DNA from: a virus
Taxonomy: Duplodnaviria; Caudoviricetes
Strand: one strand, 5' to 3'
IMG/VR virus record: IMGVR_UViG_3300020172_000524
Span: 1-64,000 of that record
DNA length: 64,000 bases
Below the pieces are notes generated by a model. It was not told where the DNA came from. It worked only from the letters and a program-made list of their open reading frames with translations, and did no database searches. A program made the translations under genes and the position numbers. Positions 1 to 58,912 of this stretch are shown piece by piece. Numbering within the stretch: position 1 is the stretch's first letter; every line of letters begins with the position of its first letter.

Positions 1-1
1 A

Positions 2-574
2 GGTAATGAAGACTATATTCAGTTTGTAGGAAGTGGTAAATGGAATGACTTAAATAACAGTAGCAGTCTAGCATATGTAATAGAATTTGATTACATAGTA
101 ACAACTTCTTCTTGGGCACTCTATAAAACAATCTATACTAACTCTTCAGGATACTATTCTATCTCTGAGACTTATGATCCTTCTAAGGAATACTACATAC
201 AAGTAGATGCTCCTACTAGAGTTCAATCTTATACTACCTCAGACATCCAAGCAGTATCTAATGTAATCTTAGGAAAGACTGTTAGGAATGGATTATCCTT
301 TCATATGTTTGATGTAAATGAAGATGGAGTACTTTCAGTATCAGATAAGTATTACGTAGCTGCAAGGAAAGCAGGAAGATTTTCTAGGTGGAGAACAGCT
401 CCTGACGTAAGAATCTTTACTACTACAGAATACAACGCTATCAAAGCAGCTAAAGTAAACGTACGTGCAACTTATCCTGGAGTTAGTACGTACACAACTT
501 CTACTTTAACTAGTGGAGGAACTTTAAATCTATATTTAATAGCTCCTGGATACTCTGGAGCAGTAACTTACTAA
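2..574 (+). CDS. 5'-truncated protein: end of a C-type lectin-like domain followed by a dockerin/EF-hand-like motif
   Basis: The frame is open from position 2 and continuous with ORF 305..574. It reads GNEDYIQFVGSGKWNDLNNSSSLAYVIEF (CTL-type ED...GxWND motif) and later DVNEDGVLSVSD (Ca-binding-loop pattern). Confidence 0.6.
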   Translation, partial: GNEDYIQFVGSGKWNDLNNSSSLAYVIEFDYIVTTSSWALYKTIYTNSSGYYSISETYDPSKEYYIQVDAPTRVQSYTTSDIQAVSNVILGKTVRNGLSFHMFDVNEDGVLSVSDKYYVAARKAGRFSRWRTAPDVRIFTTTEYNAIKAAKVNVRATYPGVSTYTTSTLTSGGTLNLYLIAPGYSGAVTY

Positions 575-575
575 C

Positions 576-1022
576 ATGAAAAAACTATTTATACTTTCCG
601 CTTTAGTCATTATGATGACTTCTCTGAGTGCTCAATGCTACAAAGTTGACACTGTAACTTCAATTGCTTCTGTAACAGAGATAGGAGGAAGACCTATTAT
701 CTTCGGAGCACAGACAACTCTAGAAGAGATCGCTTCTTCAAAGTACCAATTATGTAATGAGGGCAGTCCTATTTCAGGAGAAATCAAATCCATTGCTATG
801 CCTGAGCAACTCTTAAACATTGTAGGCTTACAGTTTCTTAAGCGTGAGTACATTGTAATTACACAGATCAATGTCAATGGAACTGTTGTAACAGGAGAAG
901 CAAAGAAGATTGTCTATGTAAATGCAATGTTTGTTTCTGTAGAAGGGATTCCTCACAACAGAAAAGCTTACTCTAAGGCCTTGGAGAAGTCGTTTAAGAA
1001 TGGATTTGAAAACTTGAAATAG
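576..1022 (+). CDS. Hypothetical exported protein
   Basis: Sec-type signal peptide MKKLFILSALVIMMTSLSA followed by Gln, as is typical in Bacteroidota; starts 1 nt after the upstream stop. Confidence 0.7.
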   Translation: MKKLFILSALVIMMTSLSAQCYKVDTVTSIASVTEIGGRPIIFGAQTTLEEIASSKYQLCNEGSPISGEIKSIAMPEQLLNIVGLQFLKREYIVITQINVNGTVVTGEAKKIVYVNAMFVSVEGIPHNRKAYSKALEKSFKNGFENLK

Positions 1023-1029
1023 GATAATA

Positions 1030-1300
1030 TCCTTCTCAGATGAGAAGTTGTCTATTTTGACTTTCTATTCTAACTTATATTACAGCAGTTTTTAACCAAA
1101 TAGCTCTCGGAGCTAAGTCTCTGTTCTGTCCACTTATTGCCTACGGTCTATTAGTTGTAGGTCAGAGCACTGTAAACTTCGTAAGAACATTTCGACACTA
1201 TCGGAGAAACCTCTTTTCACCTCTGAGGGCTACTCATACTATCCGACTTCTAGCAGATTACTTTCTAATCCTCATCTGCGAACACTAAGAAGTGGTGTCA
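1030..1300 (-). ncRNA. Candidate structured non-coding RNA (family unknown, strand tentative)
   Basis: ORF-free region with many nested inverted repeats (1080-85/1170-75, 1101-06/1110-15, 1119-23/1163-67, 1140-44/1157-61, 1194-98/1295-99, 1201-05/1242-46, 1246-51/1288-93, 1253-58/1274-79). A minus-strand TACATTTG element at 1313-1306 lies just upstream. Confidence 0.5.
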
Positions 1301-1305
1301 GTCTA

Positions 1306-1313
1306 CAAATGTA
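1306..1313 (-). promoter_or_regulatory. Bacteroidota-type -7 promoter element (TACATTTG) inside a 9-bp inverted repeat
   Basis: Matches TAnnTTTG and is followed by TAGAC, the same context as the element at 62507-62500; inverted repeat 1303-1311/1318-1326. Confidence 0.5.
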
Positions 1314-1362
1314 ATAGCATTTGTAGGTCAGAAGTCTGGTGTGTTGAAAATTTGTGGATTTT

Positions 1363-1635
1363 TTAGAGTCCTGCAGCCTGCTGACCCTTTAGATAATCAG
1401 TCTGTTGCATTGGAGGATCATCGTCTACAAGAGAGTCCATAGCCATTTCTATGTATTCCCACAACATTTCTTCTGTGTATCTCTTTCTGTAGGTAAAGTC
1501 TTTGAAGCCTTCGTACAAAGCATTTTTAAATCCTTCTATATCCCCTGCTATCTTAATCTCTTCGTCTTGCAAGGCTAACAGGAATATGTCAAACACTTCC
1601 TGAGCTGTGGGTTTTTTAATCTTTTCCATCGACAT
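1363..1635 (-). CDS. Hypothetical acidic protein
   Basis: ORF track gives 1363..1656. The ATG at 1635 is preferred because a TATATTTG element occupies 1663-1656. Confidence 0.65.
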   Translation of the reverse strand: MSMEKIKKPTAQEVFDIFLLALQDEEIKIAGDIEGFKNALYEGFKDFTYRKRYTEEMLWEYIEMAMDSLVDDDPPMQQTDYLKGQQAAGL

Positions 1636-1655
1636 AGCAGTGTTTTTAATCAACA

Positions 1656-1824
1656 CAAATATAAGTTTAAATCTTTTTTTGTCTATAGTGTTTGTCTAAT
1701 ACTTACAAACTAATAAAATAATTATCTAGATTAAAATTTCTCTTAACACGTGTAATATAAAATGTTACACGTGTCTTTAGACTTAACATTTAACTTGACT
1801 TTTTTTGCTATAATGGTATATTTG
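1656..1824. promoter_or_regulatory. Divergent promoter region with a paired palindromic operator-like site
   Basis: Minus-strand TATATTTG at 1663-1656; plus-strand TTG at 1795 with TATATTTG at 1817; two ACACGTGT palindromes at 1746-1753 and 1767-1774. Confidence 0.65.
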
Positions 1825-1848
1825 TTTAAGTAAAAACAAACCAAACCA

Positions 1849-2205
1849 ATGAAAGTAGCACGTAGATATGAAGAAGGAGTCAAGTTACATCAAGCATATA
1901 TTGATGTATTGCTTAGACTTGCAGGGTATAGATTGTCAGATCTATACACTAGTATATTAGCCCATAGTTCTTACTACGGTACTTTAGACAAGGAAGTAAA
2001 AGAAAGAATCGCAAGTGAGTTTAGCACATCAGTCCAAGTAATTTCTAACGGAATTACTAGACTAAGAAAAATGGGCATCTTAGAAAAAAACACAGTCAAC
2101 AGAAGATTGTGTCCTACTAGCAAGCAAGACGTTACACTCACTTTGATTCTTTCTACAGGAGAAACTAAAAAGGTAGAACCCCAGTTGGAAGCTGCACAAG
2201 CATGA
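1849..2205 (+). CDS. Putative winged helix-turn-helix DNA-binding protein
   Basis: KERIASEFSTSVQVISNGITRLRKMGILEK fits an HTH plus wing pattern; first gene after the promoter. Confidence 0.6.
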   Translation: MKVARRYEEGVKLHQAYIDVLLRLAGYRLSDLYTSILAHSSYYGTLDKEVKERIASEFSTSVQVISNGITRLRKMGILEKNTVNRRLCPTSKQDVTLTLILSTGETKKVEPQLEAAQA

Positions 2206-2756
2206 GAACTGTAAAGGATAAATACGATAACATCGAGATAAAAACCTATGCAGCTTACTCTGAAGTTGCTAAGGAAATGGATATGACCATAGACCAAGTA
2301 AGTACAGTCTATGAGTGGTATCTTAAGAAAACCATCGAAGAGATCAAAGAACTACCTACAGTTAAAGTAAGATTATCTGGATTAGGAGTTCTAGTATTTA
2401 ATCCTAACAAGGCAATGAAGACTATAGCTACTAAACTTAAGTCTGAAACTTTGCTTACAGATTCTCCTAGAGAAGATCTTACAGCACTCAGAGGATATAA
2501 TAACTACTACTTGCTAGAGAACTGGATTAAGTTATTTGAAGACAGATATGAAAGAGGAAAATCTAAAAAACTATACGCACCTGTAGTAGTTGATTACTTT
2601 GATAGAACTCTTATAACCTTAAAACAAAACCACAAAAAATTATATGAATCCTTACAAAGAGTACATGGCCCTGAGCCTGAAGGGTCTAAAGAATTTGAAC
2701 AAAGTACTGGAGGGAGTGGCAACGAAGACAGCGAACCAATTCAAACTATTGAATAA
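2202..2756 (+). CDS. HU/IHF-like DNA-binding protein
   Basis: EVAKEMDMTIDQVSTVY...VKVRLSGLGVLVF resembles the HU/IHF fold; ATGA overlap with the upstream gene. Confidence 0.55.
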   Translation: MRTVKDKYDNIEIKTYAAYSEVAKEMDMTIDQVSTVYEWYLKKTIEEIKELPTVKVRLSGLGVLVFNPNKAMKTIATKLKSETLLTDSPREDLTALRGYNNYYLLENWIKLFEDRYERGKSKKLYAPVVVDYFDRTLITLKQNHKKLYESLQRVHGPEPEGSKEFEQSTGGSGNEDSEPIQTIE

Positions 2757-3018
2757 TGAAAAACAGAACATTATCGCAGAGCGAATGGATATTTGTCTCA
2801 AGTGTCCCTACAATTCAACAAACGCAGTATCTTCCCCTGAGTACTTACAACTCACGGGCGAACACTACAGCACTACCAGGTCAGAACTACACTGTTCGTT
2901 TTGTGGGTGTATCTGCACCTTCAAAACAGCATCTCTATCTTCGAATTGTGGAGTAGAGAGTTGGAACGCATCTAAACCAGATAAACAAATAGAACTATTA
3001 TGGCACAAAGTAGAGTAA
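2644..3018 (+). CDS. Hypothetical Zn-finger-like protein
   Basis: RMDICLKCP...HCSFCGC...KT...C cysteine pattern; overlaps the low-complexity tail of the upstream ORF by 113 nt. Confidence 0.7.
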   Translation: MNPYKEYMALSLKGLKNLNKVLEGVATKTANQFKLLNNEKQNIIAERMDICLKCPYNSTNAVSSPEYLQLTGEHYSTTRSELHCSFCGCICTFKTASLSSNCGVESWNASKPDKQIELLWHKVE

Positions 3019-3342: not shown

Positions 3343-3649
3343 AAAACTATCCTATATATCAGCAGAACTTGAATGGGCAGAACAACGCTTAACTGAGTGG
3401 AGAGCATATATAGATAACAATCCTATCAATGGATTGAAAGACAGAATTGAATGGAAGCCTACAGCCAAAGGAGGAACAATGCCTATGGTTATTGCTAGCC
3501 AAGAATCACAAATCAAATCTCTTAGAGACACTATGAAAGAATACTTAGCTTTACTTGAAGTAGTAGACCGTCTTAGAGAGAAAGAAGAACAAAAAGCAGA
3601 AGCCCGTGGATCTCAAGAGATTAACGGTAAGATGAAACAATTTAGTTAA
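3332..3649 (+). CDS. Helical protein, possible terminase small subunit
   Basis: Directly upstream of terL and translationally coupled to it (TAATG); function inferred from position only. Confidence 0.45.
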   Translation: MATKKLSYISAELEWAEQRLTEWRAYIDNNPINGLKDRIEWKPTAKGGTMPMVIASQESQIKSLRDTMKEYLALLEVVDRLREKEEQKAEARGSQEINGKMKQFS

Positions 3650-5661
3650 TGATACATCCTAATCTAGATAGTCCAGAGTTCCTAATCAACGTAAGGAATT
3701 TCCCTGATACTGATTCAGAGGAATATACTGCGTTTTGGGAAAACGAGGATAAGAAGATTACAGAAGGTGTTACTATTAATGGATTTTACTTTTCTCCTTT
3801 CATTTATTGGCATTTAAACTATTGGTCTATTTATATAGACACTATAGTAGGTAAGCGTCAAGTTCGTAAACTAGATAAACCTCAACTTTGGGACACCTAC
3901 CTAGCTGTAGATGAAACCATTCACAAGGCAGAGAATCACGAGGATGGAAAGAAAGGAGTTGTTATGGTAGGATCCAGACGTATCTCTAAATCTGTTTTGA
4001 CTTCTTCTTATATGGCTCACAAAGCCATTACACAGAAGGGTTCTGATAACTTGATATCTGCACTTAACCAACCTGACTTAAAAGTAATTACAGATTACGT
4101 AGACTTAGGTATTCGTAATCTTCCTGACTACTTTAGATTCCCTCGTATTGAGGATGACTGGAAGAAGCAGGTTACTTTAGGTTTTAAAGATAAAAAGACC
4201 AACGCTCGTAATGAGTGGTCTAAATTCCACGTACGTAACTTTGATGAAGGCAACAATACGGAAGCAGCTGCTGGTCTTACTCTGTCTTCTTTTCTTTTGG
4301 AAGAAGGAGGAAAGGGTAAGATTCTTAGTTGCTTAGCGGCAACTACTCCGTGTTTCGATAGTCCTTATGGATGGCGTTGTTCTCCATTTGTTATCGGAAC
4401 TTCGGGAGACATGAGTAAAGCTGCTGACCTAGAAGAATTATTTAATAACCCAGAAGCTTATAACTTTCTACCTGTAGAGGCAAACGAAACAGGTAAGAGT
4501 TATGGATTGTTTATTCCAGGAACTAAATCTCTAAAAGTACCAAAGGAAGAAAAATCCTTAGGACTTTACTTAGGCAAAGAAGAGGCTTCTGAGTTAGACT
4601 TAATTAAGATTTGGGTAGCAGACGAAGAGAAGGGTAAAGAACTTATCTTAAAGTCTAGGGAACAGATTAAAAAGTCTAGTGGATTAGAGACTTACTTAAA
4701 AGAAGTAATGTACTATCCTCTCACGCACGAAGAGTGTTTCTTAGAGTTATCTCAGAACATTTTTCCAGTAGACTTACTTCAAGAACAACTACAGAAGTTA
4801 ACTGCTCAAGAGATTGTAGCAGACAACGTAGAACTCTACATGTCAGCAGACGGAACAGTACGTCACAAGTTTACCGAGAAAAAGGCTGTTACGAACTTCC
4901 CTGTTAAACCAACAGATAATATTGAGGGTTGTGTACAGATTTGGGAATATCCTCTGTCAGAAGCCCCCTATGGACTTTATACAGCAGGAACGGATCCATA
5001 CAAACAGTCACAGGCACACTACTCAACTTCTTTGGGGTCTACTTACATTTATAAGCGAGTACATAATCTTAACGGAGAAGGCTGGCAGAATATGGTAGTA
5101 GCTTGTTATACAGGTCGTCCTAAGAAAATCGAGACTTGGTACGAGACTACTAAGATGCTTCTTAAGTATTACAATTCTAAGACTCTTTGTGAGAACATGG
5201 ACTATGGTTTTATCCAGCACTGTGTAGATAAGCAAGAGTCTCCTAGAGTTTTAGAGAAGACACCTAAGTTTCTTAACGACATCCACCCTAACTCTACAGT
5301 TAATCGTGACTATGGAATTCACATGACCAAGGATATTAAAAACTATTTAATGTCGCTTATCATTGAGTACATCACAGAAGTAGTAGATATAGAAAGAGAT
5401 GCAGATGGTAACACTATAAAAGAACGTTTAGGAGTTACTAGAATCTTAGATCCTGTTCTAATTAAGGAATTAATTAAGTTCACACCTAAGTTAAACGTTG
5501 ACCGAGTTATTTCATTTGGTCTTACTTTAGCTATGGCTAAGTCTTTAAACACTCAAGTAATTATTTCTGATGCAAGTCAGGATACTAGAATGCAAGCATA
5601 CTTTAGAGAGAAGAAAGGCTCATCTCTTTTTCGTACAACTTCATCACCTTTTCGCTATTAA
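3649..5661 (+). CDS. terL: Terminase large subunit
   Basis: ATPase motifs (GSRRISKS; FLLEEGGK; VIGTSG) and RNase H-like nuclease motifs (AGTDPY...STSLGS; CEN; DRVISF); lies upstream of the portal. Confidence 0.92.
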   Translation: MIHPNLDSPEFLINVRNFPDTDSEEYTAFWENEDKKITEGVTINGFYFSPFIYWHLNYWSIYIDTIVGKRQVRKLDKPQLWDTYLAVDETIHKAENHEDGKKGVVMVGSRRISKSVLTSSYMAHKAITQKGSDNLISALNQPDLKVITDYVDLGIRNLPDYFRFPRIEDDWKKQVTLGFKDKKTNARNEWSKFHVRNFDEGNNTEAAAGLTLSSFLLEEGGKGKILSCLAATTPCFDSPYGWRCSPFVIGTSGDMSKAADLEELFNNPEAYNFLPVEANETGKSYGLFIPGTKSLKVPKEEKSLGLYLGKEEASELDLIKIWVADEEKGKELILKSREQIKKSSGLETYLKEVMYYPLTHEECFLELSQNIFPVDLLQEQLQKLTAQEIVADNVELYMSADGTVRHKFTEKKAVTNFPVKPTDNIEGCVQIWEYPLSEAPYGLYTAGTDPYKQSQAHYSTSLGSTYIYKRVHNLNGEGWQNMVVACYTGRPKKIETWYETTKMLLKYYNSKTLCENMDYGFIQHCVDKQESPRVLEKTPKFLNDIHPNSTVNRDYGIHMTKDIKNYLMSLIIEYITEVVDIERDADGNTIKERLGVTRILDPVLIKELIKFTPKLNVDRVISFGLTLAMAKSLNTQVIISDASQDTRMQAYFREKKGSSLFRTTSSPFRY

Positions 5662-5683: not shown

Positions 5684-8137
5684 ATGATTATTGAATCTCT
5701 CAAAGAGTACACTGATCCAGTCAATCACGCCTACTTTTATCCTGAGCAGTTTGTAAGCTTATCGGATAAAGAAAAAGAGAACTGGATTAAGTCTACTATG
5801 GACTACTTTGCAAATATTGCATTTGCACAGTACAAGCAGAATATCACCTTTAGAAAAAACTATAGGTTGCTTAACGGAGAATTTAACTTCTCTGACTACA
5901 CAAACATCCCTGAGATGCAGGAACTAATCAGTTACTTAAATGATGTACCTGATCAAGAGCCTGAAGTACCTCAGCACTTAAAACACTATCCTATTGTTAA
6001 CCCTCCTATCAATCAGTTGAAGGGAGAGTTGATTAACCGTCCTCACAAGTACAAGGTTAAAGCAGTAGATGACGAAGCTGTAAACGAGACTATTGATTTC
6101 CGTACAGAGTTAATTAAAGAACATTTTGTAAAGAAGTTAGAAGCTCAGTTAGAAGGTCAGCCTATCGATCCCGAACAAGAAGCTCAGATGCAACAAGAAC
6201 TACAGAACAAAATCTTGGATTATACTTCTGTTGCAGAAGAGTGGGGTAACAAAACTTTAAATGCTCTTAAGTATCACTTTAACTTTAGAGAGAAGTCTCA
6301 GCAAGCTTTCTTAGATTTCTTAGTAACAGGTAAAGAGTTTCACCACTTCTACCCAGATAATTCTCGCTTAGGATTTACCTATAAGACAGAGAACCCATCT
6401 AACGTATGGTACTTAGCTAATCGTAATGCTCAGTACACATCTGACTGTTGGGCTTTAGGTTTGATTGAAGTTCTTTCTATGAGTGAAATCGTAGAGAGAT
6501 ATAATCTTACAGGAGAAGAAGTAGAGCATTTGAAGAATCGTTCTTTACAGAACTTAAGAAACAACGAATACTCTCCCTTAGCTCCAGCTTTACCAGATCC
6601 TAATGATCCTTTGTGGCAGTTAACCTTCGAGAACGTAGGTGACTTTGCTAACGGAGGTATTGATCATAACGTATTCTCATTTAACTCTCAGCACTCTTAC
6701 ACAGTTGTTACTTCTTACTGGCAGTCTAAGAAACGTATCTTCAAACGTACCTACTTAGATGAGGAAGGATTCCAACAAGAGATGTTTGTATCTGAAGATT
6801 ACAAGATGGATAAAACCTTAGGTGATATTACTCTTGAAGAACTTTGGATAAACGAATGGTGGAGAGGTATTAAGATTGGTGCAGACATCTACGTAAATGT
6901 AGAACCTTTAGAGTTTACTCAAAGTGCTCCTATCGTAGGTATTATTAATACTACTCGTAACACTCAAGGTAAGTCTTTGTTAGATCTTCTTAAGCCCTAT
7001 CAGGTTCTTTACAACATCTGTATGAATCAGTTGTGGGAATTGCTTGAGAAAGAGATTGGTGTTGTGTTCTTAGGTGACTTGAAAGTAGTTCCTAAGAAAG
7101 ACTCTCAGGATCCTATTGAGACAATGCTATGGAATGCTAAGAACAGAGGAACTCTTTTGATTGATACTTCAATTGAGAACACAGGAGGAGCTGTACAGTT
7201 TAACCAATTCTCTCGTCTTGATCTTACTCGTTCTCTAGAGATCCAAGCACGTATTCAATTAGCTCAACAACTTCGCTTAGAAGCTTATGAGTTAGTAGGT
7301 CTTACTCGTCAACGTCTAGGTAACTCTCAAGCATCAGATACAGCTACTGCTGCTAACAATGCTTTGATTCAATCTTTTGCTCAGACAGAAACTTGGTTTG
7401 CTTGGCATGATAACATCTTGCAGAAAGTTTACCAGACTATCTTGGATATGGCTCAGTACATTGAATTACAGAAGCCTACTTCTACTTTAAACTATCTAAA
7501 CTCTGAACTAGAGACTGTATTCTTGAGAGTTAGCAAACAAGAACTCTTACACGAACTATTTGTTTTTGTTTCTTCTTATGCAGAAGACAAGGTTACTCTC
7601 GAACAGTTAAAGCAATTGGCTCAGCCTGCAATGCAGAATGGAGCAGAACTTTCTGAGATGGTTGATCTATTTACAGCTAACTCTGAAAGAAGCTTACGTA
7701 AGACTTTAGGTGATGTACAGAAACGTAAAGAAGCTATTCGTCAACAAGAACAAGCGCTTAAGCAACAGCAGTTGGAGCAACAACAAGCACAGTTTGAGCA
7801 GAAGATGCAGATGGATGCAGCTCAGAAAGCAGAAGATGCTAGAAGAGAAGATATGAACAAGCAGCTTGATCGTGAGAATAGACTGCAAGTAGTACAACTT
7901 CAAGGTATTGCTAACGAAGGTTCTTATAATCCAGATGTAGATACTACAGGTCTTCTTATCCAACAGACAAAACTTGCTCAAGAAGTTTCTAAACAGACTT
8001 ACGAGAAAGTAGCTAAAGATAAAGAGTTAAGTCTTAAAGAAAAAGAGCTAGCACTCAAAGAAAAAGACATTAACAATAAGCTTAAAATAGCTCAAACAAA
8101 TAAAAACAAGTACGATTCAGGCTCAAAAAAGAAATAA
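5684..8137 (+). CDS. Portal protein (crAss-like)
   Basis: 817 aa with HYPIVNPPINQLKGE, WINEWWRGIKIG, SLLDLLKPYQVLYNI and GLTRQRLG motifs and a C-terminal Q-rich coiled coil; follows terL. Confidence 0.88.
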   Translation: MIIESLKEYTDPVNHAYFYPEQFVSLSDKEKENWIKSTMDYFANIAFAQYKQNITFRKNYRLLNGEFNFSDYTNIPEMQELISYLNDVPDQEPEVPQHLKHYPIVNPPINQLKGELINRPHKYKVKAVDDEAVNETIDFRTELIKEHFVKKLEAQLEGQPIDPEQEAQMQQELQNKILDYTSVAEEWGNKTLNALKYHFNFREKSQQAFLDFLVTGKEFHHFYPDNSRLGFTYKTENPSNVWYLANRNAQYTSDCWALGLIEVLSMSEIVERYNLTGEEVEHLKNRSLQNLRNNEYSPLAPALPDPNDPLWQLTFENVGDFANGGIDHNVFSFNSQHSYTVVTSYWQSKKRIFKRTYLDEEGFQQEMFVSEDYKMDKTLGDITLEELWINEWWRGIKIGADIYVNVEPLEFTQSAPIVGIINTTRNTQGKSLLDLLKPYQVLYNICMNQLWELLEKEIGVVFLGDLKVVPKKDSQDPIETMLWNAKNRGTLLIDTSIENTGGAVQFNQFSRLDLTRSLEIQARIQLAQQLRLEAYELVGLTRQRLGNSQASDTATAANNALIQSFAQTETWFAWHDNILQKVYQTILDMAQYIELQKPTSTLNYLNSELETVFLRVSKQELLHELFVFVSSYAEDKVTLEQLKQLAQPAMQNGAELSEMVDLFTANSERSLRKTLGDVQKRKEAIRQQEQALKQQQLEQQQAQFEQKMQMDAAQKAEDARREDMNKQLDRENRLQVVQLQGIANEGSYNPDVDTTGLLIQQTKLAQEVSKQTYEKVAKDKELSLKEKELALKEKDINNKLKIAQTNKNKYDSGSKKK

Positions 8138-9450: not shown

Positions 9451-10974
9451 ATGCCTAATCAAAGTATTCCAAGGGTTAACGGGAGAGTTATAGCTAACGC
9501 TCACATGACCAGCTCATTCTATTCTAAAAATGGTTTGGGTAAATTGACAGACAAGAACTTCGTTGAAACCATGCTGCGCACTAAGCCTGATCAGTATGAC
9601 AAAATGATGATTCGCCTTTTCACCGACACTAAATTGTACAAGAACGACTTGTTGGATTTGGTAATGAAGACTGGTAAGCCTTTTATGGTTAACGATCCTA
9701 ACGGAGTTTTCACCTACAAAATCAAGAAGCGTGCTGAGTTACCTAAGATCATTGTATCTACTGCTGCTACCTACCCAGGTCGTGATGGTTCTACTTTCGA
9801 ATTGGTATTTGACAAGAACGTGTTTGTTGTTAATGACATTATCACTGGCCACCGCTATGAGCAAGAAACTCAAATCCAAATCGTTTCTGAAGGTGAAAAA
9901 CACCAGAACGGTTTCAAGTACAAGTGTACTGCAGTAGGTGCTTCTTCTAGCGACTACGTAGCTGCTACTTTCTTGGCTGTAGGTGTTGAGTACTTCAAGA
10001 TCGGTAACGTATTGGGTGAGTACACCACTTCATTCTCTAGCTTGGGATTGTTCGATGGTAACTTAGAAGTTATGGCTGATGTATTGCAACAGTATGGTGT
10101 TGAACACACTATCACTGACTGGGCTGATGCAACCAAATTGGGTATGCAGACAGACGCTTCAGGCAATCCTATGGACATCACTTACTACTCTGTAAGCGAT
10201 CCTATGGCTGAAGGTGAGAAAACCAAAATCGTTGGTTGGGAACCTACAGTATCTCGTTTGCTCCGTATGGAGATGATGCGCATGAAAGCTAACACTTTGA
10301 TGTGGGGTCGTCAAGGTAACGGTAAAGATGAAAAAGGTCGTCCTACTCGTGCTAAGCAAGGCTTATGGCAGCAATTGCACTTGGGTAACGTTATCTACTA
10401 CGATCGTGGTCAGTTCTCTTTGAACTTGATTCGTACTGCTATCGGTGACTTGTTCTACAACCGTGTGTTGTTGAAAGACCGTAGCGTGAAGATCTACACC
10501 AACCGTTCTGGTATGGAGTTGGCTTCTACTGCTATCCGCAAAGACTTCAACGGTCAGAACTTTATGGTATCTGCTGATAAGTTCTTGGATGGTAAAGATC
10601 GTACTAAGCAAGGTTATGCTTTCCAATTCGATCACTTCATGACTACTGAGACTGGTCCAGTTGAATTCGTAGAATTGGAGCAATTGAATGAGCATGCTAC
10701 TTTCTTGGAGTTGGGTCCTAACAAGAAGACTCCTCCAATTTTCATCATCTTGGATGTAAGTGGTCAAGATGACGCAGGTATCCGTGAGGTAAAATTATCT
10801 ACTCGTCCTAACATGTACTACCAGTACATTGCAGGTTCAGTAGGATTCGGTGCTCAACAGACATCAATCGCTAGCAAAGATCCTTATTCTACCTACATCA
10901 TGAAAGACTTCGCAGGTATCTTCTTGGAAGATCCTACCAAGACTGTGATCATTAAAGAATTCCCTCGCATCTAA
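9451..10974 (+). CDS. Major capsid protein (crAss-like)
   Basis: 507 aa; codons typical of highly expressed genes (TTC, AAC, ATC, CGT); position after portal and scaffold; GLWQQL...YY motif. Confidence 0.85.
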   Translation: MPNQSIPRVNGRVIANAHMTSSFYSKNGLGKLTDKNFVETMLRTKPDQYDKMMIRLFTDTKLYKNDLLDLVMKTGKPFMVNDPNGVFTYKIKKRAELPKIIVSTAATYPGRDGSTFELVFDKNVFVVNDIITGHRYEQETQIQIVSEGEKHQNGFKYKCTAVGASSSDYVAATFLAVGVEYFKIGNVLGEYTTSFSSLGLFDGNLEVMADVLQQYGVEHTITDWADATKLGMQTDASGNPMDITYYSVSDPMAEGEKTKIVGWEPTVSRLLRMEMMRMKANTLMWGRQGNGKDEKGRPTRAKQGLWQQLHLGNVIYYDRGQFSLNLIRTAIGDLFYNRVLLKDRSVKIYTNRSGMELASTAIRKDFNGQNFMVSADKFLDGKDRTKQGYAFQFDHFMTTETGPVEFVELEQLNEHATFLELGPNKKTPPIFIILDVSGQDDAGIREVKLSTRPNMYYQYIAGSVGFGAQQTSIASKDPYSTYIMKDFAGIFLEDPTKTVIIKEFPRI

Positions 10975-26997: not shown

Positions 26998-27032
26998 GAA
27001 CTAAATAAACTAAATAAACTAAAACTAAATAT

Positions 27033-27188
27033 ATGGCCGCTAAAGCATCTAAATCAAAATCAACTTCTACTGCTTCCAAGTTTAAAGTTAAACCAAAGAT
27101 CCGCAGAAAAGGAGTAGTAGCAAAAACTAAAGCTTCAAAGTTAAAGTCTAGTAAGAACTACTTAAAGAAATCAAGAGGTCAGGGGTAA
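27033..27188 (+). CDS. Lys/Ser-rich 51-aa protein, absent from the ORF track
   Basis: MAAKASKSKSTSTASKFKVKPKIRRKGVVAKTKASKLKSSKNYLKKSRGQG*; A-rich leader upstream and a terminator directly after. Confidence 0.7.
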   Translation: MAAKASKSKSTSTASKFKVKPKIRRKGVVAKTKASKLKSSKNYLKKSRGQG

Positions 27189-27211
27189 GCAATTACCCCT
27201 TGCTTTTTTTT
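27181..27211 (+). terminator. Intrinsic terminator overlapping the next promoter
   Basis: AGGGGTAA-gcaa-TTACCCCT followed by TGCTTTTTTTT. Confidence 0.8.
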
Positions 27212-27229
27212 ATTAATCTTGTATATTTG
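27200..27229 (+). promoter_or_regulatory. Promoter TTG-N19-TATATTTG
   Basis: Consensus spacing; lies upstream of the cargo/RNAP operon. Confidence 0.65.
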
Positions 27230-27292
27230 TATAACTAGCTTATTTCCAAGCACTTATTAACATCTTAAGTTAATAACATTAAACATTAAAAC

Positions 27293-55193: not shown

Positions 55194-55200
55194 AATTAAG

Positions 55201-55431
55201 ATGATTAAGCTAGCAGATATAGATAAACTTATAAACCAGTTCTATTTAGACTCAGAGAAGGATGGGTTAGCAGTAAGACCTAATGTGGTACTGCTTACAG
55301 AAGATCAGTTTGAAGATCTATTAAAAGAAATGGGAGTAGAAGAAGAAGACGATGTTGTAATAGAAAGTATACTAGGATTAGATGTCGTCATAGCAAACGG
55401 GATAGAACATCCAAGAGTAATAAGATTATAA
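55201..55431 (+). CDS. Hypothetical acidic protein
   Basis: 76 aa; last + strand gene before the convergent terminator. Confidence 0.65.
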   Translation: MIKLADIDKLINQFYLDSEKDGLAVRPNVVLLTEDQFEDLLKEMGVEEEDDVVIESILGLDVVIANGIEHPRVIRL

Positions 55432-55465
55432 AAAAAGGGGCCCTATTAAGAGCCCCTTTTCTTTT
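55431..55465. terminator. Bidirectional intrinsic terminator at the strand switch
   Basis: A-run, GGGGC...GCCCC stem, TTTTCTTTT; lies between convergent operons. Confidence 0.8.
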
Positions 55466-55472
55466 GGTTGGT

Positions 55473-55513
55473 AAACTAAATAACTAAAAACTAAAACTAA
55501 ATAAACTAAAACT
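55473..55513. repeat. Tandem degenerate A(A)ACTAAA repeats
   Basis: aaactaaataactaaaaactaaaactaaataaactaaaact; a similar tract lies at 26999-27030. Confidence 0.7.
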
Positions 55514-55517
55514 ATGA

Positions 55518-56142: not shown

Positions 56143-56583
56143 TTAATTTGTTTTTGCTTTGATTACATCTAGACCTGCTGCTATTAATAGTTCTAATCCT
56201 GTTCTATCTCTATAATCTTCTAGATATACAAATGTAGTGATTCCACTTTGAATAATCAACTTAGCACAATGCACACAGCATGCATGAGTACAGTACATAG
56301 TTGCTCCTTCTGTACTGATAGGACTCTTGCATGCTTTAGTAATTGCATTGGATTCTGAGTGGAGTACGTATTCAAAGGTTGTATCATTCTCTTCACATAC
56401 ATTTGGAAACCCTGAAGGAGTTCCATTATACCCAAAAGAGATAATGTTTCCGTTCTTTACGATTAAAGATCCTACCTGTAGTCTCTCACAGTAAGATTCT
56501 TGAGCGATTCTTACAGCTAAATCTAAGTAAAGTTCAGACTTATCAGTCTTAGGCATGTTGTATATGATAGGTATTTTATACAT
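56143..56583 (-). CDS. dCMP deaminase
   Basis: SYCERLQVG...GYNGTPSG...HSESNAI...CCVHCAKLIIQSGI Zn-deaminase motifs. Confidence 0.9.
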   Translation of the reverse strand: MYKIPIIYNMPKTDKSELYLDLAVRIAQESYCERLQVGSLIVKNGNIISFGYNGTPSGFPNVCEENDTTFEYVLHSESNAITKACKSPISTEGATMYCTHACCVHCAKLIIQSGITTFVYLEDYRDRTGLELLIAAGLDVIKAKTN

Positions 56584-58435: not shown

Positions 58436-58623
58436 TGCTTCGTAAATTTAATAGTTAGTGTAAACCATAAGAACCCTAAATGAATACTAAACCTCTCTCT
58501 AGAGTTAGTGCGACTAAAAGTTAATATGGGTAAAGGATAGAAGAACCAATAAGGATAATCCCTTTGGCCTTTGGTTAGTTTGGAGTAGTTACTTACTTGA
58601 ATCTTCATGTCTTCTATCGTCAT
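58432..58623 (-). CDS. Small hydrophobic hypothetical protein
   Basis: 63 aa; ATGA-type coupling to the downstream gene. Confidence 0.5.
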   Translation of the reverse strand: MTIEDMKIQVSNYSKLTKGQRDYPYWFFYPLPILTFSRTNSRERFSIHLGFLWFTLTIKFTKQ

Positions 58624-58912
58624 ACTGAGACTTCTCTCTCATTATGTACGAGAGAAACATAGCGTTACACATTACATGTCCTAAGTGATCTATTCCTGAT
58701 TCAGGGTCTTTATCTTCTCCTGAAAGAAAAGCAAACATATGCCTAAGCAAGCTCTCGCTTACTTCACTTACAGGCATACCCTTACACCAATTCCATTTCT
58801 CGTATTTCTCTGCTCCAAATTCAAGGACTTCAACCATAGGCTCTAGAGACTTAAAATCTACTAAAGACCATTGTCTCTTTCCTTTGTTGTAGCGTAGTGC
58901 TTGTTCAGTCAT
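58589..58912 (-). CDS. DUF5664-like dATP/dGTP diphosphohydrolase-domain protein
   Basis: YNKGKRQWSLV...VLEFGAEKY..WNW.KG...SLLRH...GEDKDPESGIDHLGHVMCNAMFL. Confidence 0.8.
   Translation of the reverse strand: MTEQALRYNKGKRQWSLVDFKSLEPMVEVLEFGAEKYEKWNWCKGMPVSEVSESLLRHMFAFLSGEDKDPESGIDHLGHVMCNAMFLSYIMREKSQYDDRRHEDSSK

Follow-up and report, generated by a model that had tools for sequence, protein, structure and literature searches.

What does the longest gene-free gap of a phage genome hold? We address this question in a window (the whole stretch of DNA analysed, 64,000 nucleotides (nt)) that forms the first 64 kb of IMG/VR virus record IMGVR_UViG_3300020172_000524 (76,651 bp, CheckV completeness 65%). 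At positions 1023–1362 the window has a 340-nt gap flanked by the stop codons of two converging open reading frames (ORFs). The original prediction for this locus, made without database searches, called it the longest ORF-free gap in the window, which was borne out for ORFs of at least 80 amino acids (aa), and placed in it a candidate novel structured phage non-coding RNA (ncRNA) read from the minus strand behind its own promoter. Our results support this interpretation through covariation among relatives, an asymmetry of G-U pairs and a promoter-type box kept in 29 of 29 copies. Positions 1299–1062, read on the minus strand, very probably constitute an RNA gene. The fuller reading that we prefer, an independent structured ncRNA gene of ~240–270 nt, acting in trans by means of its fold, in a crAss-like phage with a Bacteroidota host, stands in our judgement at an even balance.

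Conservation of the element among related phages

Relatives were collected via both proteins that flank the gap, which gave 33 loci. The flanking genes in the window are as follows.

576–1022, plus strand: 148-aa ORF, whose stop codon is the left edge of the gap
1363–1656, minus strand: 97-aa ORF, whose stop codon is the right edge of the gap; the likely true start gives 90 aa
1363–1635, minus strand: the resulting 90-aa gene, directly upstream of the RNA and co-inherited with it; its product is acidic and helical

In a blastn search with the gap sequence, 26 of the 33 loci (18 contigs) gave matches of 81–100% identity, and the seven loci left without a match were the most distant ones, with 148-aa proteins 57–64% identical to that of the window. 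Pattern scans with short invariant stretches gave hits in 22 and 26 IMG/VR contigs and in 24 metagenome contigs. Altogether 32 distinct sequences were retrieved, of which a truncated copy (L060), a contig with a 22-nt motif only (L073) and a copy with an insertion (L065) were excluded from the structural counts. The structural alignment, A3, contains 29 sequences, 28 of them distinct. Copies of the element match each other at 233–609 bits (blastn).

Across eight relatives, the core at 1062–1299 was 80–97% identical, compared with 72–99% for the 90-aa gene, 69–100% for the spacer at 1300–1362 and 59–98% for the 148-aa gene in the same eight. Insertions and deletions among relatives (1, 2, 12 and 13 nt) were restricted to hairpin tips. 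The original prediction had named a lack of conservation in relatives as an outcome that would speak against it; what we found was a 29-sequence alignment with this well-kept core.

Conserved helices and compensatory changes

The consensus structure calculated by RNAalifold from the minus-strand alignment A3 has 50 pairs in 11 helices, arranged in two domains. All of the following features are given on the minus strand.

1062–1299: structured RNA core, 238 nt, two domains
1194–1299: 5′ domain, a four-way junction with P1–P5
1295–1299/1194–1198: P1
1291–1294/1283–1286: P2
1275–1279/1253–1257: P3
1242–1247/1200–1205: P4
1228–1230/1219–1221: P5
1066–1189: 3′ multi-helix domain with P6–P11
1186–1189/1066–1069: P6
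1181–1182/1073–1074: P7
1169–1175/1080–1086: P8
1163–1167/1119–1123: P9
1157–1161/1140–1144: P10
1112–1115/1101–1104: P11, of variable length
1124–1139: invariant unpaired 16 nt that link P10 to the 3′ strand of P9, the same in 29/29 sequences (A3/A4)
1212–1238: distal P4 arm (A3 columns 66–101), with an internal loop of AGUA (1234–1231) and GAA (1218–1216)

Standard pairs filled 99.6% of the 1400 cells of these helices, compared to 95.7 ± 0.3% in column shuffles, and none of 500 shuffles reached the observed value. Changes on both sides of a pair were seen in 10 pairs, compared to 6.0 ± 1.0 in shuffles (again 0/500 reached it), and were distributed over P2 (two), P3 (one), P7 (one), P8 (three), P9 (one) and P11 (two). 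When the partners were slid by 1–3 columns, only 0–2 double-change pairs remained and pairing dropped to 27–43%. The double changes that the prediction proposed to look for in relatives are therefore present, at a level that no shuffle matched. Variation in P1 and P4 was of the G-U kind only, and the number of further pair types (22, against 24.1 in shuffles) was not above that in shuffles. In P11, inserts of 12–13 nt in relatives lengthen the hairpin.

The predicted fold had ten stems, and the complementary segments of all ten are present, with eight of them in the covariation-supported consensus and two unsupported. The closing stem 1194–98/1295–99 recurs as P1; 1201–05/1242–46, 1253–58/1274–79 and 1080–85/1170–75 recur with slightly shifted ends (1200–05/1242–47, 1253–57/1275–79 and 1080–86/1169–75, respectively); 1101–06/1110–15 corresponds to P11, and 1119–23/1163–67 and 1140–44/1157–61 are P9 and P10. 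The terminal hairpin 1032–38/1041–47 also held up, its stem being kept and its loop varying among relatives. The stem 1246–51/1288–93 was contradicted, as 1288–93 changes without its proposed partner and covaries instead in the hairpin 1283–86/1291–94, and the stem 1210–13/1225–28 is lost in the second of two loop variants. The hairpin 1283–86/1291–94 and the outer helices 1066–69/1186–89 and 1073–74/1181–82 had not been foreseen.

The invariant stretch at 1124–1139 looks like a candidate recognition surface, and other joining strands of the RNA are likewise invariant. The distal P4 loop occurs as two linked sequence variants, between which columns 71/93 switch from U-A to A-U; its AGUA/GAA internal loop may be a bulged-G (loop E-like) RNA module. 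A scan for covarying column pairs that might indicate pseudoknots was dominated by lineage effects; apart from columns 71/93 in the P4 arm, none of the pairs stood out as meaningful.

The same alignment points to the strand. Consensus pairs were canonical in 99.6% of cells when read as minus-strand RNA, compared to 88.6% when read as plus, and the minus-strand reading contained 154 G-U cells and a single A-C cell. This asymmetry indicates that the RNA sense is the minus strand. The prediction had cautioned that several stems extend by G-U pairs only on the plus strand; for the supported helices the situation is the reverse, with the G-U pairs on the minus strand.

Proposed promoter, ends and transcription of the element

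Three features around the core bear on how the RNA would be made.

1313–1306, minus strand: promoter −7 box TACATTTG, of the TAnnTTTG type, ending 6 nt before P1
1303–1326, minus strand: hairpin separating the RNA from the 90-aa gene (arms 1303–1311/1318–1326), overlapping the promoter box
1032–1047: hairpin common to the converging transcription units, terminator-like on the plus strand only (terminator scan)

The sequence TACATTTG, proposed as a minus-strand promoter at 1313–1306, is present in the window and a box of its type is kept in every copy: TAnnTT(T/C)G ends 4–7 nt before P1 in 29/29 copies while the surrounding columns vary. We take TAnnTTTG to be the −7 element of promoters read by the Bacteroidota housekeeping sigma factor. 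Elsewhere in the window, the late gene blocks at 1817, 8267, 17211, 27222 and 52484 on the plus strand are each preceded by an intergenic TTGAC(T)-N(17–19)-TAnnTTTG, and these motifs indicate host-type (Bacteroidota-like) promoters for the structural genes. At the RNA gene, host RNA polymerase would start transcription ~6 nt past the box, at or just before P1.

The hairpin at 1303–1326 is likely the terminator of the 90-aa gene. Relatives have differing sequences at this position, each of them capable of forming a hairpin (alignment by eye). The hairpin at 1032–1047 is the terminator of the plus-strand 148-aa gene and, read as 1047–1032, likely also forms the 3′ end of the RNA in the clade of the window, although its use by the minus-strand transcript is our inference. 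Other clades would end the RNA at a separate hairpin followed by a U-run; such a hairpin and U-run were seen by eye in the L063 type, after the RNA and before the next ORF.

Part of the region 700–1900 of the window was found in six metatranscriptome runs. Four of these were examined, and each contained a contig over the element.

700–1322: RNA-run contig X15
1107–1321: RNA-run contig X16
960–1223: RNA-run contig X17
1093–1273: RNA-run contig X18, a variant with a long P11

X15 and X16 stop at 1321–1322 because strains diverge there. These contigs are compatible with transcription of the element and do not prove it; their depth and the stretches they leave uncovered carry no weight either way.

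Covariation and strand asymmetry alone do not separate RNA from single-stranded DNA (ssDNA), in which hairpins tolerate G-T wobbles. A structure of the minus strand as ssDNA, serving as a priming or replication signal or as a packaging site, would also suit the position of the element, 2.3 kb upstream of terL at a switch in gene orientation. The promoter-type box, however, lies directly upstream in matching orientation in 29/29 copies and hairpins bound the element, the AGUA/GAA loop resembles a module of the RNA type, and the element occurs on RNA-library contigs in 4/4 runs examined, which is a weak argument. No iterons or repeats were noted by eye, no dedicated repeat search having been made, and the similarity search of the genome matched the element only. 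We consider the ssDNA explanation less likely than an RNA gene, and in fact very unlikely.

Tests for a coding region and for known RNA families

The gap 1023–1362 does not fully contain any ORF of at least 30 aa that has a start codon; two short plus-strand ORFs, 1341–1442 (33 aa) and 1405–1578, start within its final 22 bases or past them. The only long open frame in the element, 75 codons at 1061–1288 on the plus strand, is antisense to the RNA and has no ATG, GTG or TTG. A second plus-strand frame, 1117–1314, is open for 65 codons. These open frames are probably a side effect of the purine-rich RNA (58% purines). Reading TAG as Q or TGA as W gave nothing gene-like in the element. We rejected a coding region in view of the startless open frame and the indels among relatives, whose lengths of 1, 2, 12 and 13 nt rule out a reading frame.

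A search of the whole window with Rfam 15 (4227 models) at gathering thresholds gave no match, and at E values up to 10 the region 900–1500 gave only eight weak matches of 11–17 bits, compared with thresholds of 36.8–99. ARAGORN found no transfer RNA (tRNA) or transfer-messenger RNA (tmRNA) in the window or in the remaining 12.6 kb of the record. The Rfam comparison that had been suggested as a check on novelty thus returned no family above threshold, and the remark that the element was not recognised as a tRNA, a tmRNA, a self-cleaving ribozyme or an intron agrees with the lack of Rfam and ARAGORN matches.

Further kinds of element were considered and set aside. For a group I intron, the Intron_gpI covariance model gave no match in 900–1500 even at E up to 10; there are no exons, the 90-aa gene has its own conserved stop codon and a conserved C-terminus, and the window clade has no downstream ORF. 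The flanks of the element are its least conserved surroundings in the alignment of relatives. Resemblances to conserved elements of RNase P and group I RNAs, noted only by eye, conflicted with the covarying helices and were dropped. The template of a diversity-generating retroelement (DGR), or another internal repeat, was rejected as a similarity search of the 76.6-kb record found the element alone. A retron msr-msd or DGR RNA was rejected for want of a reverse transcriptase and of a second copy of the element: PF00078 matched none of five clade records (completeness 94% or more for three) while control genomes matched, and a Pfam scan of 48 proteins from the window and record found no reverse transcriptase. 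An antisense small RNA directed at phage genes was rejected as the longest complementarity in the 76.6-kb genome is 12 nt and 100 shuffles give maxima of 11–15. The neighbours of the element, the 90-aa and 148-aa proteins without Pfam or PHROG match, and the lack of a HEARO match argued against a guide RNA of an adjacent IscB, TnpB or IS110 enzyme (omega RNA, HEARO or bridge RNA). A riboswitch or other cis-regulatory leader was rejected on the grounds that 24/29 copies have no downstream ORF and that a hairpin and U-run precede the ORF in the L063 type. The element fits no known family or kind tested, and it is new in this sense only.

Distribution of the RNA and its neighbouring genes

A covariance model of the 3′ domain (R1) found exactly one copy per genome in 5/5 records of the clade, with E ~1e-34, and nothing in 5/5 more distant relatives, three of them 96–100% complete. 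A model of the 5′ domain (R2) found nothing in 4/4 distant relatives; its control match, at 1e-26, occurred once in G007. By nhmmer, the element was not found in the distant relatives L028–L034. A 21-nt core of the element was absent from 185,579 bacterial and archaeal species genomes, and blastn of window positions 1–3000 against 50,697 records of cultured phages had its sole match in the upstream lectin-like gene, outside the element. The RNA is a single-copy element limited to one freshwater/estuarine crAss-like clade. A GC-rich 2-kb metagenome contig has a 22-nt exact match to the invariant loop region (L073:1318–1345); it gave no match to R1 or to Rfam and no similar fold, and the match is probably due to chance.

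The 90-aa gene adjoins the RNA on the same strand in 8/8 contexts examined and is absent from the same 5/5 distant relatives that lack the RNA. Its protein family, which is without annotation, comprises 49 clusters, of which 48 align over 98% or more of the query and share at least 68% identity with it; Pfam, PHROG and Atlas gave no lead. The low-confidence AlphaFold model of the 90-aa protein (pLDDT 62.8) shows four helices and a tail that is disordered yet conserved. The 148-aa protein on the other side has no Pfam or PHROG match.

A same-strand ORF of 83–101 aa follows the RNA within ~50–100 nt in 5/29 copies, all from the more distant RNA-bearing clades; no such ORF was found in the other 24 copies, the window clade included.

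L063:9659–9952: downstream ORF
L005:4727–4987: downstream ORF
L047:1604–1897: downstream ORF
L059:1079–1330: downstream ORF
L042:7362–7667: downstream ORF

The encoded proteins start with a hydrophobic helix and end in a lysine-rich tail; Pfam gave no match for them. In these five copies (L005, L059, L042, L047 and L063), the arrangement would suit a present or former cis-regulatory leader, riboswitch-like, for a small membrane-anchored lysine-rich protein. The RNA is nonetheless fully conserved in the copies that lack the ORF, that of the window among them, the L063 type places its hairpin and U-run between RNA and ORF, and no expression platform is evident. We regard such a leader as highly improbable. 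The absence of a downstream ORF from 24/29 copies and the hairpin and U-run of the L063 type support a stand-alone RNA gene.

A copy with a nuclease ORF in a hairpin arm

In one of the 32 distinct sequences retrieved, the RNA element carries a protein gene.

L065:1410–2050: RNA element with insertion
L065:1588–1968, minus strand: 126-aa endonuclease VII-family ORF (PF02945, E 1e-24) within it

The ORF sits at the tip of the P4 arm, where it replaces ~25 nt including P5, and the promoter box, P1–P3 and the entire 3′ domain are intact. The two linked P4-loop variants, seen in several lineages, flank the insertion point. Relatives of this nuclease number 144 in IMG/VR, and the RNA was found in none of the 80 loci examined. 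With a lone copy and no RNA at those 80 nuclease loci, the insertion is a single observation.

Peripheral hairpin tips are the usual site of intron ORFs. A catalytic or self-processing RNA, either a new ribozyme or a decayed intron-like element able to carry a nuclease ORF, would account for this copy, in which P1–P3 and the 3′ domain remain intact around the ORF, and also for the complex fold with multiple junctions and invariant unpaired nucleotides. Against it, no ribozyme or intron model of Rfam matched at E values as high as 10, exons are absent, the gene upstream terminates at a conserved stop codon of its own, and the flanks vary more than any other part of the locus. The helix order of the element also does not seem to fit the group I scheme. 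Moreover, the ORF removed ~25 nt on insertion and was seen once, and 0/80 loci with its relatives carry the RNA. These considerations leave a catalytic RNA decidedly unlikely. A bolder proposal would see in the element a functional phage RNA of a new class, active in its own right as a ribozyme or as the core of a ribonucleoprotein (for example a packaging or takeover RNA), whose gene serves as the landing site of a homing-type nuclease in a dispensable hairpin tip, intron-like but without a host gene; we rate this as unlikely and speculative.

Observations that weigh against an independent RNA gene

Several of our results count against the stand-alone, trans-acting RNA gene, and they fall into three groups. 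The first concerns the alignment. All copies are close kin, with an effective sequence number of ~1 for both covariance models; the column-shuffle control ignores relatedness, and kin sequences can beat shuffles; and the compensatory changes trace, by our reading, to about a dozen events. Folding energy gave z scores of −2.06 (plus) and −1.76 (minus) over 340 nt, and of −0.16 (minus) and −0.71 (plus) for the exact 238-nt RNA, where 86 of 200 shuffles folded at least as well as the minus-strand RNA. The expectation that the RNA would fold better than its shuffles therefore failed for the exact RNA. To us the covariation and the bias of G-U pairs to one strand carry more weight than this energy result.

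Low diversity, an unexceptional folding energy and the ease with which kin sequences beat column shuffles are what one would see if the element had no function, being a young, little-diverged stretch with pairing as a by-product of relatedness. This explanation does not sit well with a core that has changed less than the coding and non-coding DNA on either side of it in the same genomes, with double changes that fall on predicted partners and vanish when these are slid by 1–3 columns, with indels at hairpin tips only, or with 154 G-U cells to one A-C cell. We find it barely credible.

The second group concerns the start and end of the transcript. The box is spelled TTTG in 17 copies and TTCG in the other 12 of the 29. 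Bacteroidota promoters are expected to have a −33 element, TTG/TTTG, ~19–21 nt upstream of the −7 box, and no clear one was seen by eye upstream of the box of the RNA. On the minus strand the hairpin 1047–1032 has no U-run. The RNA-run contigs lack strand and end information, also cover neighbouring genes, and may include DNA.

An alternative is that the element is a structured 3′ untranslated region (UTR) of the 90-aa messenger RNA (mRNA), co-transcribed with it, perhaps cut out, and stabilising or regulating the message in cis. A position on the same strand directly downstream of the 90-aa gene in 8/8 contexts, joint presence or absence of the two, and the lack of an evident −33 element by eye would all be expected of such a UTR. 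A hairpin lies between gene and RNA in each lineage (by eye), however, and the promoter-type box is kept 4–7 nt before P1 in 29/29 copies amid varying surroundings. The RNA is also more conserved than the gene that it would serve, and 16-nt invariant loops exceed the needs of a stabiliser. Taken together, we think a 3′ UTR unlikely, though not far-fetched.

The third group concerns the mode of action of the independent RNA gene. The pI of the 90-aa protein, 4.32, does not favour this conserved neighbour as the partner of the RNA. The mechanism set out below is a guess reached by exclusion.

A possible mode of action

In the mechanism that we envisage, the folded RNA would act in trans, without long antisense pairing, as a scaffold or decoy during infection. 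Its invariant internal loops and the AGUA/GAA module would provide binding surfaces for a host or phage protein. Taken alone, action in trans as a protein-binding RNA is a tentative proposal, which we would sooner doubt than assume.

The source genome and other features of the window

Judged by its sequence, the source genome is that of a crAss-like phage. PHROG matches of the crAss-like group were obtained for terminase (3649–5661), portal (5684–8137) and major head protein (9451–10974), and crAss tail ring proteins 1 and 2 and the muzzle protein were matched with Pfam. The element lies 2.3 kb upstream of terL and the terminase-portal-capsid genes, where gene orientation switches.

The next longest gaps between ORFs of at least 80 aa are 55194–55517 (324 nt), which sits at a switch from plus- to minus-strand genes, and 26998–27292 (295 nt); neither gave an Rfam match at gathering thresholds. 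At 1746–1774 the palindromic octamer ACACGTGT occurs twice, the copies 13 nt apart. The ACACGTGT pair lies between the 90-aa gene and the gene that opens the structural operon, where the promoters diverge, and looks like a candidate operator. The replication block (56143–56583 and 58589–58912; L081:10907–11965) encodes a dCMP deaminase, a protein with a dATP/dGTP diphosphohydrolase N-domain and a 352-aa thymidylate-synthase-family protein with a long insert compared to the 266-position profile. These three proteins hint at a modified-nucleotide pathway.

Comparison with known phage RNAs

Among known phage RNAs, GOLLD and ROOL resemble the element in being phage-encoded, with complex multi-helix folds, conserved unpaired nucleotides and no obvious regulated neighbour, and in being known from comparative genomics only. 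They are roughly 580–800 nt long, however, whereas the element is ~240 nt, has no Rfam match, is not near tRNA genes (there are none in the 76.6-kb record) and is confined to one narrow clade. The phi29-type packaging RNA (pRNA) is likewise a two-domain phage RNA of similar size with its own promoter, and the place of the element 2.3 kb upstream of the terminase-portal-capsid genes invites the comparison; the element has no Rfam match, and no covarying loop pair that could form rings was seen by eye (P5 and P11 loops). The RNA is absent from more distant relatives with the same 148-aa tail-region protein and is therefore probably not core to packaging in this group.

ORF-bearing group I introns offer a parallel to L065, in which the nuclease ORF also sits at the tip of a hairpin arm with the rest of the fold intact. 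Unlike these introns, the element has no host gene or exons, no Rfam intron match and another order of helices, and the L065 ORF, seen once, replaces part of the arm and is not a pure insertion. The P4 CI RNA and P1 c4 RNA are small phage ncRNAs with their own promoters; they are short and act by complementarity to phage transcripts. The element, with its complex fold, has about three times their length and no complementarity to the genome beyond chance.

A literature search found no paper on an ncRNA of crAss-like phages. The Crassvirales passages of PMC9226505 concern UG27 reverse transcriptases and are irrelevant to the element. A 2023 study (PMC10690425) predicted 10,006 candidate structured RNAs without names in the intergenic regions of IMG/VR, using a pipeline that discarded alignments above 200 bits, a limit that matches between copies of the element (233–609 bits) exceed; crAss and Bacteroidota are not mentioned in the portions of its text available to us, and its supplementary tables may already list part of the element.

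Significance

The novelty of the RNA is limited by its narrow family, one freshwater/estuarine clade. This clade nonetheless belongs to the crAss-like phages, which are among the most abundant phages known. The element falls in the class of size and complexity in which earlier orphan RNAs proved to be ribozymes, guide RNAs or self-assembling particles, and it is a small and concrete object, with a predicted start, a fold, conserved surfaces and a natural insertion variant.

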